From: an uncultured Methanoregulaceae archaeon
GTDB lineage: Archaea; Halobacteriota; Methanomicrobia; Methanomicrobiales; Methanospirillaceae
Direction: 5' to 3'
DNA length: 64,000 nt
NCBI GenBank assembly: GCA_963701095.1
Contig: OY969564.1
Location: 1,952,001 to 2,016,000, forward strand
Part shown: in pieces, positions 50,990-56,173 of the stretch
How positions within the stretch are numbered: the first letter of the stretch is position 1
How the letters are laid out: every line of letters starts with the position of its first letter
Translations under genes and position numbers: made by a program
Notes under the pieces: generated by a model
Seen by the model: only the letters and a program-made list of their open reading frames with translations
Databases searched by the model: none
Told to the model about the DNA's origin: nothing

Positions 50990-51062
50990 GCCGGTGTGGC
51001 AGAGCGGTTAATGCCTTCGCCTGCAAAGCGAATGCGTGGGGGTTCGACTCCCTCCGCCGGCG
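50990..51062 (+). tRNA. tRNA-Cys(GCA) #3, atypical (A37, apparent G73), directly upstream of cysS
   Basis: GCCGGTG/CGCCGGC acceptor, D-stem GCA/TGC, anticodon arm TTCGC-CTGCAAA-GCGAA, T-arm GGGGG-TTCGACT-CCCTC. Confidence 0.9.
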
Positions 51063-51082
51063 TAAAAATGAGGATCACTGCC

Positions 51083-52343
51083 ATGGAACTGTACAGTACA
51101 TTATCAAGAACTGTTGAACCGTTTGCGACACTTCATCCGGACAGGGTGACGCTCTTTGTTTGCGGTCCGACAGTATACGATTATTCACATCTTGGTCATG
51201 CCCGGACCTATGTTGTCTTTGACGTCCTTACAAAATATCTTAGGTTGACGGGTAAAGAGGTGTTCTATCTCCAGAATATAACAGACGTCGATGACAAAAT
51301 CATCTACCGTGCAAAGGAAGAAGGGCTGTCCCAGAGCCTTCTGGCTAGGAAGTTTGAGACCGAGTACCTCCGAGACATGCGTTCCCTTGGGATTGATGCT
51401 GTTAGTTATTATGCCCGGGCCACAACTCACATCCCCGAGATAATCAACCAGGTGAAACGGTTGGTCGATCGGAATGTAGCATACGTCACCGAAACCGGAG
51501 TCTACTTCAATCTCGACTCGTTTAGACACAACGGGGAACTTTCAGGACAGGAACGGGCAAAGCGTGTCAGCCGCGTTAACGATTCGACAAAGCACAATCC
51601 CTTGGATTTTGCGCTCTGGAAACTGGGTGAATTCGGGGAATATACTTGGGACTCCCCATGGGGGCGGGGACGACCAGGCTGGCATATCGAGGACACAGTG
51701 TATCTCAGAGAAGTACTTCGGGCAGCAGTACGATATTCATGGGGGGGGATTAGATCTGATATTCCCTCATCATGAGGCAGAGATCGCGCAGATGGAGTCT
51801 CTGGAAGGAAAGCACCCGATGGTGAGATACTGGCTGCACACGGGTTTCCTCACGGTAAAAGGTGAGAAAATGTCCAAATCCCTCGGGAACTTTATCACGA
51901 TCAGGAACGCCCTCAAAACATGGAATAAGGATATACTCCGGTATTACTTTTTGCTCTCCCACTACCGGTCCCCACTTCAGGCAACTGACGAAGGTTTTGC
52001 TAACGCCGCCCGAGGTCTCGATCATATACGGGCTGTTGCAACTAAAGATAAAGGAGCGGACGCGAAGGGAAGGAGAGCCTTTATCGACGCTATGGAGTCT
52101 GATCTCAATACACCTATGGCCCTTGCTGCAATCCAGGCACTTGCGGTGAGTAGAGATCTTGAGGCGTTGCGCGAGTACGGAGAGATCCTCGGGATCAATT
52201 TTCTCCGCGAGACCAGTGCCCCCCTCAGTGTTCTTCAGGATATCCGGGCAGAACTACGGGCGAAAAAACAGTTTGGTATAGCAGATTTGATCCGTCAACG
52301 AATGGTAGCTGCGGGAATACCAATTACTGATGGACCACTCTGA
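51083..52343 (+). CDS. cysS: Cysteinyl-tRNA synthetase (one extra base at 51698-51701)
   Basis: CGPTVY, HLGH, DFALWK, GRPGWHIEDT | DIHGGG.DLIFPHHEAE, KMSKS, AD.IR anticodon-binding motif. Confidence 0.93.
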
Positions 52344-52594
52344 TTGGGTTCCCCCTTTCATCAGCTTTTTGGAATCCGGAACTGCGAAATGCTCCCGAGA
52401 TTACACATATACTTAAACGCTCAATGGTGTTGCCAAAGTTCACATACGGGCGGGGAATTAAATTCATTCCTTTACCGGGAACGTGAAAGATTCAGTGAGG
52501 AGGAAAATAAAAAAATCGCGGGGGAAACAGTGGGTAACAGGTTCACCACTGCCTTAGGAAATAGAGGAACGTGCATGTAGAGGCATAGGACACA

Positions 52595-52848
52595 TCATGC
52601 AGTAACCGCCTCTTCCAGCGGCTTGGTGTTCAGGCCGTACAGACTCTGCCTTGCATCGATGAAATAATAATGTTCAATCAAGAACTTTTCATCTTTGAGC
52701 CTGTTCAATGCATACCGCACAGTTCGGGACGGCAGGGCGGTCTCACGGATGAGATCCTTCTGCGTCAGCTGACCATTCGTTTCCAATACTTTATACACGA
52801 GCTTTGCCGATGGCGGCAGGTGCCTGATCCGTGCGAATGATCCTCCAT
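52595..52848 (-). CDS. Winged-HTH transcription regulator (apparent 1-nt deletion near the start)
   Basis: LPPSAKLVYKVL...LTQKDL..ET.LP.RTVRYAL..L...DARQSLY; ATG at 52848 is one base out of frame. Confidence 0.8.
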
Positions 52849-52911
52849 TCGCGCTTACATTATTTTCGACAAAAACGATCCCTCATAGTGGATCACCATA
52901 GAACGTAAGAG

Positions 52912-52925
52912 TTCACAATTGTTAA
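52912..52925. promoter_or_regulatory. Putative operator TTCACAATTGTTAA upstream of the regulator
   Basis: 16-mer AGTTCACAATTGTTAA identical to the cysK site; overlaps a minus-strand BRE/TATA-like CGAAAGACTTAACAA. Confidence 0.7.
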
Positions 52926-53465: not shown

Positions 53466-54329
53466 ATGACATCCCAAGAAAAGGATGAACACATCCTGGA
53501 AGCTGTTGGACGGTCCCGGATTGTCATCCGGAACGGAACCATTGTGGAAATTGGAGAAGCAAAGATTACGGAATGCCCGCTGGCCAAACGTTTTGCGTAT
53601 CCTGTCCCCCGGATCACACAAGAAGCAGTAAAAGCTAACATCGAGCACCGGATGAAAGCATTCGGCATGTGCACATCCCGGAGAGACGTACTTGATATGC
53701 GCGAATTCGTAGGGTTCGGTGCCACAGAGTTGCTTGGTTTCGCATCACATGTGGGTTTGATCGATGCGGCTGTACTCGCGTGTGACGGTGCCGGGACAGT
53801 CATTGTGAGAAAACCCGCCCTTATCCAGGGAGTCGGCGGAAGGATGTCCGGGCTTATCTCTACGAGCCCTATCAAAGAGGTTATTCAACGCATCGAAGAA
53901 AGTGGCGGTATTGTTGTGGATAAAACCCACGCAGCACTCGATCAGTTTAGCGGTGTAAAACGAGCTTACCAAGAAGGCTTCAAAAAAGTGGCTGTTACTG
54001 TAGCAAGACCTGAAGTCGCAGTGCGTATTCACCAGGAATACCCTAATACCATCATCTTTGGTGTCCATGTCACAGGTCTCACCGAAGAGGAGACAGAAGC
54101 AATGGTGGGAGTTGCGGATCTTATGACTGCATGTGCCTCTAAAACCGTGCGACAGATAGCAGGTGCTAAGGCACTTCTTCAAGCAGGAGTTTCCGTTCCT
54201 ATATTTGCCCTAACAAAGCGAGGAAAAGAAATCATTATTGAAAAGATTCGTCAAACGGAAGAACAGGTTCTGATAAAACCTACAAAGCTTCCGGCTCTTG
54301 GCGAAAAACAGCCCGACCCGCTGGTCTGA
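53466..54329 (+). CDS. Methanogenesis marker protein 8 (DUF2099)
   Basis: DEHILEAVG, CPL, FGMCT, ACDGAGT, GGRMSGL, GVH.TG, ACASK. Confidence 0.85.
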   Translation: MTSQEKDEHILEAVGRSRIVIRNGTIVEIGEAKITECPLAKRFAYPVPRITQEAVKANIEHRMKAFGMCTSRRDVLDMREFVGFGATELLGFASHVGLIDAAVLACDGAGTVIVRKPALIQGVGGRMSGLISTSPIKEVIQRIEESGGIVVDKTHAALDQFSGVKRAYQEGFKKVAVTVARPEVAVRIHQEYPNTIIFGVHVTGLTEEETEAMVGVADLMTACASKTVRQIAGAKALLQAGVSVPIFALTKRGKEIIIEKIRQTEEQVLIKPTKLPALGEKQPDPLV

Positions 54330-54699
54330 AATAATGAGATATTTTTTTTTAATTTGATGTTTTTAGTTTTTGAGATCCTCTATTTTTGCAAATTCAGACA
54401 TGCCAGTGATGAGGAATTGTCTCGAAAATAAAATACCGGTGACTTATCTGCATGATTGTGTTGAGGTCCTGTTGATGCTAAGAACCGAGAAAGTGACGGA
54501 TCACTTTAAGCCGTCTGTTGAAGAAGGATCCGGCCTTTGTTTTATTACTCCAGATAATAAATCATACGCGCCCAATATATCTTAACTGTATTCAAAATCC
54601 GGCCTCAAAAACACAGTTTTAGGTCTGTAATTCAGATCAGGAAAAAGTCGCCGAATACAGAACTTATAAATAATCACGATTGTTATCTATTATGGTCGT

Positions 54700-54715
54700 A
54701 TTCACAATTGTGAAT
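54700..54715. promoter_or_regulatory. Perfect palindrome ATTCACAATTGTGAAT upstream of tRNA-Cys #2/pscS
   Basis: Downstream of TTATAAATA (54664-54672); weaker copy ATCACGATTGTTAT at ~54673-54686. Confidence 0.75.
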
Positions 54716-54723
54716 GTGGCTAT

Positions 54724-54795
54724 GCCAAGGTGGCGGAGTGGCTACGCGGCTGACTGCAGATCAGCTACAACCCGGTTCGAATCCGGGCCTTGGCT
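54724..54795 (+). tRNA. tRNA-Cys(GCA) #2 (G37, U73), directly upstream of pscS
   Basis: GCCAAGG/CCTTGGC, anticodon arm GCTGA-CTGCAGA-TCAGC, T-arm CCCGG-TTCGAAT-CCGGG. Confidence 0.97.
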
Positions 54796-54808
54796 TCGAG
54801 GTGTTCCC

Positions 54809-56173
54809 ATGAATATCAGAGTCCAGAAAACATTCGAAGCACTCTTCGAACTTGAAGAGATCCGGGGTATATTCAGAGATTCTCTTCCCTCGGGTTTTAG
54901 TACCGAAGAGGAAACGGCGTTCCAGAAAAAGATCTCAGATCTCAAGGTGATTATCGTCGATCTTGAATCCGGTTCAGGAACGCCAAAAGTGACAAAAATA
55001 GCCGGAACCCTCGATGTCCGTTGCCGGGAGGAACAATATATCAACATCCACCCCATCCAGGCTGCAGGTCGTCTGACGACGGAAGCGAGAAAGGCGATCA
55101 TATCCTATGGAGACGGATATTCAACGTGCGACGCCTGCCGCAAACCGTTCCGGCTGGACAAAATTTCAAAGCCGGGTATAGCGGAGTTCCATGAAGAACT
55201 GGCAAAATGGCTCAACATGGACCAAGCCCGGGTTGTTCCAGGTGCACGACGGGGGTTCCAGGCTGTGGCAGGAACTCTAGTCAATAAGGGAGACAGCGTG
55301 ATTGTCTCTGCACTCGCGCATTATACCGAGTTTCTGGCTGTTGAAAATGCCGGTGGTATTGTGAGGGAAGTGCCGCTGAGCGCAAAAAATATCGTCACTG
55401 GTGAAGCAACGGCACAGAAGATCGAAGAGGTCAGGCGGGAGACCGGAAAACTCCCGGTGCTTATCATGATCGACCACTTCGACTACCAGTTTGCAAATGA
55501 GCACGAAATAAAAGAAATCGGAAAAGTTGCACACCAATACGATATTCCCTTCCTTTACAATGGGGCATATACAGTCGGCGTCCAGCCGGTCGATGGGAAG
55601 AAGATCGGAGCAGACTTTGTAGTCGGCTCCGGACACAAGAGTATGGCATCGGTCGCGCCGTCCGGGGTACTTGCGATGACCGATGAATGGGCGCCTAAAG
55701 CGCTTCGAACGACTGCGATAGTCGGCGACCTCACCAAACGGAAGTTTGGCATCAAGGAAGTGGAACTGCTCGGATGCACGCTGATGGGTGGGACCCTGCT
55801 TTCCATGATGGCATCGTTTCCCACGGTAAAAGAAAGGGTGCTCCACTGGGATGAACAGGTCAAACGATCCAATTTCTTCATCGACCGGCTCCTGAAGATT
55901 GAAGGGAGCAAGGTGCTCTCAGAATACCCACGTAAGCACACGCTCACGAAAGTCGATACCACAGGAAGCTTCGACACAGTCGCACAGACCCACAAACGTC
56001 GAGGTTTCTACTTCAGCGACGAGCTTTCATCCCGCGGCATTGTCGGAGAGTTTGCCGGAGCAACCCGGACCTGGAAACTGAACACCTACGGTCTCAACGA
56101 AAAGCAGATCCGTTACCTCACTGATGTCTTTACCGAAATCGCAGAGAAATACGAGATCCCTGCTGCAAAGTAA
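54809..56173 (+). CDS. pscS: Sep-tRNA:Cys-tRNA synthase (SepCysS) with N-terminal extension
   Basis: [47 protein letters not shown] ribosome-binding site. Confidence 0.93.

Follow-up and report, generated by a model that had tools for sequence, protein, structure and literature searches.

Why should an archaeon carry three genes for cysteine tRNA, and why should two of them lie directly in front of genes for enzymes that make Cys-tRNA in two different ways? The question is raised by the stretch of DNA analysed here, called the window, which comprises 64,000 nucleotides (positions 1952001-2016000 of G000:C1, the single contig of a 2.63-Mb genome with 48% G+C) and whose proteins have their closest homologues under the source name Methanoregula. 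One of its tRNA-Cys genes precedes cysS, which encodes a cysteinyl-tRNA synthetase (CysRS), and another precedes pscS, which encodes a SepCysS, an enzyme of the indirect route in which SepRS loads phosphoserine (Sep) on the tRNA; the third lies in the rRNA operon. The tRNA joined to cysS has G instead of U at the discriminator, position 73. The most likely mechanism, to which we give modest confidence on the basis of sequence comparison, is that CysRS and its tRNA(G73) work as a pair beside SepRS and SepCysS, which would act on the U73 tRNAs.

Two classes of tRNA-Cys and the spread of the tRNA(G73)-cysS unit

Four tRNA genes were found in the window by ARAGORN, of which three are tRNA-Cys(GCA), all on the + strand; the Rfam tRNA model scored #1 (5145-5216) with 55.7, #3 (50990-51062) with 60.5 and #2 (54724-54795) with 56.7 bits. 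The genome has 48 tRNA genes in total, and these three are its only tRNA-Cys genes, Cys being the sole anticodon with three gene copies. The tRNAs and the two enzyme genes are arranged as follows (coordinates are those of the window unless preceded by a contig):

5145..5216, + strand: tRNA-Cys(GCA) #1, inside the genome's only rRNA operon, after 23S and before 5S; G37, A47, A59, U73 (positions 47 and 59 read by hand)
50990..51062, + strand: tRNA-Cys(GCA) #3, the isodecoder linked to cysS; A37, G47, C59, G73
51063..51082, + strand: spacer of 20 nt between #3 and cysS, with a Shine-Dalgarno-like GAGGA motif and no T-run
51083..52343, + strand: cysS, encoding a CysRS of about 419 amino acids; TIGR00435, 250.9 and 141.4 bits on two pieces
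54724..54795, + strand: tRNA-Cys(GCA) #2, the isodecoder linked to pscS; G37, A47, A59, U73
54796..54808, + strand: spacer of 13 nt between #2 and pscS, with a Shine-Dalgarno-like GAGGTG motif and no T-run
54809..56173, + strand: pscS, a long SepCysS paralogue of 454 amino acids; NF006810, 630.4 bits over residues 59-450; TIGR02539, 389.8 bits

Thus the 3' end of #3 is separated by 20 nt from the ATG of cysS (51083) and that of #2 by 13 nt from the ATG of the 454-amino acid SepCysS (54809), while #1 lies between the 23S (2135-5060) and 5S (5304-5425) genes. The short spacer between #3 and cysS, with its GAGGA motif and without a T-run, implies a putative tRNA-mRNA co-transcript.

The original prediction, made from the letters of the window, had placed the three genes before cysS, before pscS and in the rRNA operon, and both ARAGORN and Rfam agree with it. 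It had also described #1 and #2 as close relatives with G37 and U73, and #3 as different throughout and carrying A37. The cloverleaves bear this out, as do the identities, with 64/72 bases shared by #1 and #2 and only 42 and 41 of 73 shared by #3 with #1 and #2, respectively. It did not mention the G73 of #3, which proved to mark the invariant difference between the classes, the discriminator being never U in the 35 cysS-linked tRNAs described below. All three tRNAs have the GCA anticodon of canonical tRNA-Cys, and the canonical U73 is found in #1 and #2, whereas #3 has G73. According to the passages on identity elements in PMC9976931, U73 and the anticodon are the major determinants for both CysRS and SepRS, with G37, A47 and A59 as additional elements for SepRS; these additional elements are present in #1 and #2, whereas #3 has A37, G47 and C59. 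SepCysS, too, is described as recognising U73 in the relevant passage of PMC9499178.

The tRNA(G73)-cysS unit is not peculiar to this genome. A close match to tRNA #3 was present in 31 of 108 same-genus genomes (this one included), and cysS was present in the identical 31. Directly upstream of cysS, a tRNA-Cys(GCA) ending in CCGGCG was found in 30/30 loci fetched from the genus. The spacer measures 18-27 nt, with GGAG- or GAGG-like motifs, in the 23 of 33 loci that gave a start-pattern match, and inspection by eye places the start about equally far from the tRNA in the other 10. Of 121 genomes sampled from the order, seven, from three families, had a cysS above the family cut-off, and the same tRNA accompanied it in 7/7. 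Taken together, a tRNA-Cys stands directly upstream of cassette-type cysS in 35/35 loci examined. A scan of species representatives covered 80 loci of other cysS relatives, mostly bacterial, and found an upstream tRNA-Cys in only 2, both of which are counted within the 35 cysS-linked tRNAs. Because of this difference (35/35 against 2/80), the adjacency of tRNA and cysS is not due to chance. For pscS, an upstream tRNA-Cys was found in 20 of 25 long-type loci across the order.

The closest CysRS relatives from beyond the order, 46-47% identical, are two, one from a Methanomassiliicoccales metagenome-assembled genome (MAG) and one from a Thermoplasmata MAG. In both a tRNA-Cys(GCA) with A73 and G37 lies 17-21 nt upstream of cysS (L101 1407-1479; L103 743-814), and its T-arm is the same as that of tRNA #3. 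None of the 35 cysS-linked tRNAs has U as its discriminator (33 have G and 2 have A), so that a non-U base is kept there in 35/35 cassettes spanning three archaeal orders. C59 is present in 35/35 and A47 in none; at position 37, 25 have A and 10 have G. In the 28 unique sequences the cloverleaf is preserved, together with an invariant G13-A22 mismatch, and compensatory changes are seen at 9/21 pairs; the cysS-linked tRNA is a working tRNA family under structural selection and not a relic.

The boundaries given by ARAGORN for G020 suggested an alternative fold with an 8-bp acceptor stem and a U discriminator. This was rejected, since G1 is mostly preceded by G or A, neither of which can pair with G73, and a T does not follow G73 in every case.

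The CysRS copies outside the genus are 78-84% identical to the reference P0004, copies within the genus being 82-100% identical, and in a quick FastTree tree they fall among the genus sequences, which suggests transfer of the unit between lineages. The unit is moreover associated with free cysteine synthesis: cysK was found in 30/31 cysS-positive vs 15/77 cysS-negative same-genus genomes, and cysK or a paralogue of it often lies within 1-2 kb of the cysS-linked tRNA. A second cysK-like paralogue, 47-51% identical to the CysK of the window, is located about 0.7-1.4 kb from the tRNA(G73)-cysS unit in 11 genomes (G012, G116, G020, G086, G118, G084, G054, G087, G059, G123 and G089).

A divergent CysRS-like gene (L088-L100, e.g. 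G025:C6:193361-194584), with about 33% identity, HLGN in place of HIGH and WNVQD in place of WHIEC, is confined to a single family of the order. Its twelve whole matches scored 271-299 bits and a partial one (G189) 201, all below the cut-off of 340 bits, and a tRNA was found alongside in 0/13 of these loci.

Two further observations concern the tRNA genes of this genome. The rRNA operon (434-5425), the only one in the genome, has the order 16S, 233-nt spacer, 23S, tRNA-Cys, 5S, and no tRNA was found in the 16S-23S spacer by ARAGORN or Rfam; related archaea usually have a tRNA-Ala in that spacer and a tRNA-Cys after the 5S gene. Outside the window, at C1:2137141-2137209 (- strand), ARAGORN reported a tRNA-like gene with a two-base anticodon, 'tRNA-???(cc)'.

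CysRS, SepRS and SepCysS and their surroundings

In the window cysS is split over two frames (51068/51083-51775 and 51564-52343). Where five same-genus orthologues read GAC ACx GCx ATC (D-T-A-I), the window reads GAC ACA GTG T ATC, with one extra base. The break belongs to the assembly or to a rare variant, because the contigs of 4/4 public runs read an intact frame. They have one base fewer at 51699/51700 and a C beside that site, giving ACAGCTATC in an open frame, which encodes D-T-A-I-S as in all five orthologues compared. All four runs belong to a single study and contained 91-97% of the words sampled from the cysS stretch; their contigs, with a depth of 8-14, showed one other difference over 1.2-2.7 kb. 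Each of the two window pieces scored below the TIGR00435 cut-off of 340 bits, whereas the orthologues, which are intact and 419-420 amino acids long, scored 398-421 bits. The identity of the pieces to P0004, the Methanoregula CysRS reference taken from L016, is 86-88%, and beyond the frame break no other stop or decay was found in the window cysS. There is no second cysS in the genome.

Fragmented copies of cysS, with an in-frame stop and in two or three pieces, were also seen at G101:C1:154969-156227 and G104:C1:537786-539043. The broken copies come from assemblies of 1-4 contigs with an estimated completeness of 86-90% (G000, a single contig, 86%; G101 and G104, 87-90%), and their occurrence in such near-closed assemblies fits consensus indel errors. 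At the 3' end of pscS (56119-56120) all four runs read AG where the window reads CA, probably owing to another consensus error in the assembly; by codon count, Leu437 stays the same in the run sequence and Thr438 becomes Ala.

The translations contain both class I motifs, HLGH (of the HIGH type) and KMSKS. The zinc ligands of the E. coli enzyme we take to be Cys28, Cys209, His234 and Glu238. The present enzyme has both the Cys of FVCGP and the PHHE..E motif, and the position of Cys209 is occupied by Asp (WHIED). Because the same Asp is found in 40/150 of the nearest CysRS cluster representatives (P0124-P0272), it would be the mark of a natural subfamily and not a defect; proteins from a Korarchaeota MAG and a Patescibacteria bacterium are among the Asp-bearing representatives. 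The catalytic domain of this compact enzyme (419 amino acids) can be aligned to solved CysRS structures, and so can its C-terminal end (8qhp residues 438-479). The CysRS proteins of the cassettes constitute one cluster at 50% identity, their next relatives being at most 55% identical; ten neighbour clusters were checked for organism names, and these yielded no more than a Korarchaeota MAG and a Patescibacteria bacterium. In comparison with 137 related representatives, the clade has residues of its own at otherwise conserved positions, namely S5, L14, T16, K51, N150, E183, Y187 and M407 (P0004 numbering); at the positions of E183 and Y187 the relatives have K in 104/137 and P in 115/137, respectively.

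SepRS, which the original prediction reported missing from the window and proposed to look for as sepS, is a single-copy gene at C1:1486491-1488035 (690 bits), a long way from the window. SepCysS is present in two copies, the long one in the window and a short one at C1:761148-762326. The long copy lies above both family cut-offs (TIGR02539, 389.8 with a cut-off of 365.25; NF006810, 630.4 with a cut-off of 301) and has an N-terminal extension of ~58 amino acids ahead of the family match, for which no Pfam match was found and which is common to the long type across the order. Because SepRS was detected in 101/108 genomes of the genus and in 50/50 of the high-quality ones, CysRS always comes on top of SepRS; of the cysS-positive genomes (31), only two, 64% and 73% complete, yielded no SepRS.

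Short-type SepCysS is found in 118/121 genomes of the order. A tRNA-Cys lies upstream of 20 of the 25 long-type loci, at a distance of at most about 50 nt in 18 and of about 166 and 211 nt in the other two, and of none of five short-type loci. The tRNAs of these 20 loci, 22 in number, have U73 and G37 without exception. With all three tRNA-Cys genes inside the window, SepRS and the short SepCysS of this genome have no tRNA-Cys neighbour. Of the idea that each route to Cys-tRNA is paired with its own tRNA gene there remains, then, that two tRNA classes exist and that each is physically tied to one route; the tie on the indirect side is only to the accessory long SepCysS, and not to SepRS or the short SepCysS.

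Variations on this arrangement were observed. Two identical U73/G37 tRNA-Cys genes, ~1.3 kb apart, lie upstream of long pscS in L055 (G020:C1, 2879-2949 and 4257-4327), and two different ones in L068. In L032, L034, L037 and L041 a U73/G37 tRNA-Cys is placed ~0.7-1.2 kb downstream of cysS, so that both kinds are closer together than in the window, and in L037 (G041) a distance of ~3.6 kb separates the stop of cysS from the start of the long pscS.

The following genes of cysteine and sulfur metabolism lie next to the units:

48322..49287, - strand: cysE (serine O-acetyltransferase) with a C-terminal FeS_assembly_P domain; TIGR01172, 234 bits (cut-off 210.65); PF01883, 67 bits
49299..50231, - strand: cysK (cysteine synthase A), divergent from the tRNA #3-cysS unit; TIGR01139, 466.9 bits
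56176..57570, + strand: gene of the O-acetylhomoserine sulfhydrylase family, its frame opening 3 nt after pscS; TIGR01326, 661.1 bits
57574..59055, + strand: metX (homoserine O-acetyltransferase), its product ending in a CBS pair, 4 nt behind the sulfhydrylase gene; NF001209, 540.5 bits; PF00571

The product of cysE catalyses the first step of the free-cysteine route, and the domain fused to its C-terminus is of the SUF-associated, PaaD-like type. Between cysS and the gene for methanogenesis marker 8 there is a stretch of 1.1 kb with a 67-amino acid frame (52595-52798, - strand) that has a weak winged-helix match (HTH_24, E 4e-6); window and run contigs differ around 52526-52867. No Pfam match was obtained for the small frames 53075-53290(-), 54370-54585(+), 52344-52580(+), 50724-51026(-) and 50477-50668(-).

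Two proposed supply lines for Cys-tRNA and the alternatives

From the anatomy of the units, their conservation and co-occurrence, the intact cysS frame and the pattern of identity elements we infer who would charge what and how the units would be transcribed and regulated. In the direct line, CysE and CysK would supply free cysteine, and the compact CysRS (about 419 amino acids), co-transcribed with its own tRNA-Cys, would charge that G73 tRNA. In the indirect line, SepRS would load phosphoserine on the U73/G37 tRNAs, #1 being made with the rRNA and #2 with the accessory long SepCysS, and the two SepCysS paralogues would turn the tRNA-bound Sep into Cys. The tRNA(G73)-cysS unit would be an add-on that moves as one piece among SepRS-dependent archaea, and the discriminator change would make CysRS and tRNA(G73) wholly or partly orthogonal to SepRS and SepCysS. 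The two lines may, as the original prediction proposed, be insulated channels that can be switched by transcription.

Several points weigh against this picture or narrow it. Position 37, a known SepRS determinant on which the original prediction had relied to tell #3 from the other tRNAs, does not hold as a distinguishing base; because it is G in 10/35 cysS-linked tRNAs, the discriminator alone sets the two classes apart consistently. Nor are A47 and A59 constant among the pscS-linked tRNAs (A59 in only 3/22), and so these two elements carry little weight in the order Methanomicrobiales. The tRNA-pscS unit, which had been seen as the counterpart of tRNA-cysS, occurs also in genomes without cysS (G004, G094), and therefore it did not evolve as the counterpart of the CysRS line. 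Archaeal SepCysS is reported, in the passage of PMC8762117 on this subject, to accept a G73 Sep-tRNA-Sec in vivo, so that G73 is no absolute barrier at the SepCysS step. The insulation may be partial or one-sided, and CysRS might also take U73 tRNAs. Finally, the four runs come from a single study and may include the source sample of the assembly, and contigs hide rare variants.

The same layout could have arisen by hitch-hiking, if the cysS and pscS units had each come with a tRNA, the cysS unit by horizontal transfer together with the tRNA of its donor, and if both enzymes charged all three tRNAs, the extra copies serving as dosage for a cysteine-rich proteome. The patchy spread of the unit (31/108 genomes of the genus; 7/121 of the order with cysS over the cut-off) agrees with such a history, as do the position of the out-of-genus CysRS copies, 78-84% identical to P0004, among the genus sequences in the quick tree and the fact that no anticodon but that of Cys has three gene copies. 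Moreover, a passage of PMC8762117 says of M. acetivorans and M. maripaludis that both enzymes use a single tRNA. Nevertheless we consider this explanation unlikely: a neutral passenger would be expected to drift or vanish, whereas the tRNA is kept with its structure intact in 31/31 cysS-positive genomes, and the non-U discriminator is kept in 35/35 cassettes across three orders; U73 is given as a major determinant of CysRS and SepRS in PMC9976931.

The tRNA genes might also be mainly expression elements, providing a strong promoter and, through cuts by RNase P and RNase Z, cysS and pscS mRNAs that have a short leader and a defined 5' end. That the spacers are short and constant, 13-27 nt in most loci, with a Shine-Dalgarno-like motif and no T-run, and that two unrelated cassettes share this layout, is what such a role would predict; it leaves unexplained why a non-U73 tRNA-Cys is always found with cysS and a U73/G37 one always with pscS. 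As their main role we find it quite improbable, and it is in any case compatible with a dedicated CysRS/tRNA(G73) pair. The view that cysS is dead and tRNA #3 a relic, the organism living on SepRS and SepCysS alone, was a condition under which the original prediction would have failed. It can point to the +1 frame break at 51699/51700 and to the cysS pieces in G101 and G104. The contigs of all four runs, with the same D-T-A-I-S as 5/5 orthologues, the lack of further decay in pieces 86-88% identical to P0004, and the occurrence of the broken copies in assemblies of 1-4 contigs and 86-90% completeness, which fits consensus indel errors, make it very improbable indeed.

On a wider scale the idea of a dedicated CysRS/tRNA(G73) pair can be extended, tentatively and with more doubt than confidence. 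The tRNA(non-U73)-cysS unit might be a self-contained, horizontally mobile and naturally orthogonal pair for a standard amino acid and codon, which would let SepRS-dependent archaea (Methanomicrobiales, Thermoplasmata-type) add direct Cys charging, usually with cysK, without draining the U73 pool of tRNA-dependent cysteine synthesis, the enzyme and the discriminator (A73 or G73) having changed together. If the tRNA-Cys pools are indeed separate, this would be a cell in which a single amino acid and codon family are naturally served by two orthogonal charging systems. It would then bear on how a horizontally acquired synthetase settles where the same aminoacyl-tRNA is already made otherwise, on the split of methanogen sulfur between tRNA-bound and free cysteine, and on the use of such pairs in genetic-code engineering.

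Comparison with known systems

The core of this idea, that is the orthogonality of G73 and the linkage of SepCysS to tRNA-Cys, is already known from the literature. Mukai et al. 2022 (PMC8762117), citing Perona et al. 2018, mention a G73 tRNA-Cys in Methanoregula for which orthogonality was suggested, without charging data, and by the same route report non-U73 tRNA-Cys with co-varying CysRS in methanogens that use SepRS. The genus name and the G73 tRNA-Cys are the same as here. The passages concerned (PMC8762117) do not mention the location of the tRNA 18-27 nt upstream of cysS, the 31/31 co-occurrence, the link to cysK or the A73 cassette of Thermoplasmata type. In a literature search we found no printed adjacency of tRNA(G73) and cysS, which Perona et al. 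2018 or the supplements of the papers cited may hold, and no charging experiment on a G73 tRNA-Cys. What the present analysis adds to the published suggestion is a tight conserved unit, its all-or-none phyletic pattern and a cysS that is intact in the contigs of four runs, and further the link to cysK and the A73 sister cassette.

The linkage of SepCysS and tRNA-Cys was described for the loci of clade VII SepCysS by Mukai et al. 2017, mBio (PMC5424206). As far as the passages on that clade go, its loci have an adjacent tRNA-Cys and genes of sulfur metabolism, as seen here with the tRNA 13 nt upstream and the sulfhydrylase gene and metX next to pscS. The N-terminal SepCysE-like piece, given for the clade as fused to SepCysS, may have a counterpart in the extension of ~58 amino acids, without a Pfam match, of the long SepCysS in the window. 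The small tRNA-Thr-ED gene described for clade VII (PMC5424206) is absent from this locus. A free-standing tRNA-Thr-ED gene was not found in the genome either, its only PF08915 match (C1:989263-989601) being inside a 609-amino acid frame. From its length, we take this frame to be ThrRS.

SepRS and CysRS are known to coexist in Methanosarcina mazei, where each is said to prefer a different tRNA-Cys (Hauenstein and Perona 2008, as related in PMC9976931 and PMC8762117). In the accounts given there the preference rests on nucleotides of the tRNA core and m1G37 helps both enzymes, whereas in the present case it is the discriminator that differs and the tRNA genes are tied to genes of the enzymes. 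Another likeness is offered by the selC* tRNA-Cys and cysS* genes of Desulfobacterales (Mukai et al. 2017 NAR, via PMC7609411), where a dedicated second CysRS stands beside a non-canonical tRNA-Cys that the standard CysRS would not accept; like the unit described here, this is a natural gene pair of a dedicated CysRS and its tRNA-Cys. As described in that source (PMC7609411), the selC* tRNA has an 8/4 arrangement of acceptor and T stems, A1:U72 and often a UCA anticodon, and the cysS* product is without the anticodon-binding domain, whereas the tRNA described here is an ordinary 7/5 cloverleaf with a GCA anticodon, and the C-terminal part of its CysRS is retained (aligned to 8qhp residues 438-479).

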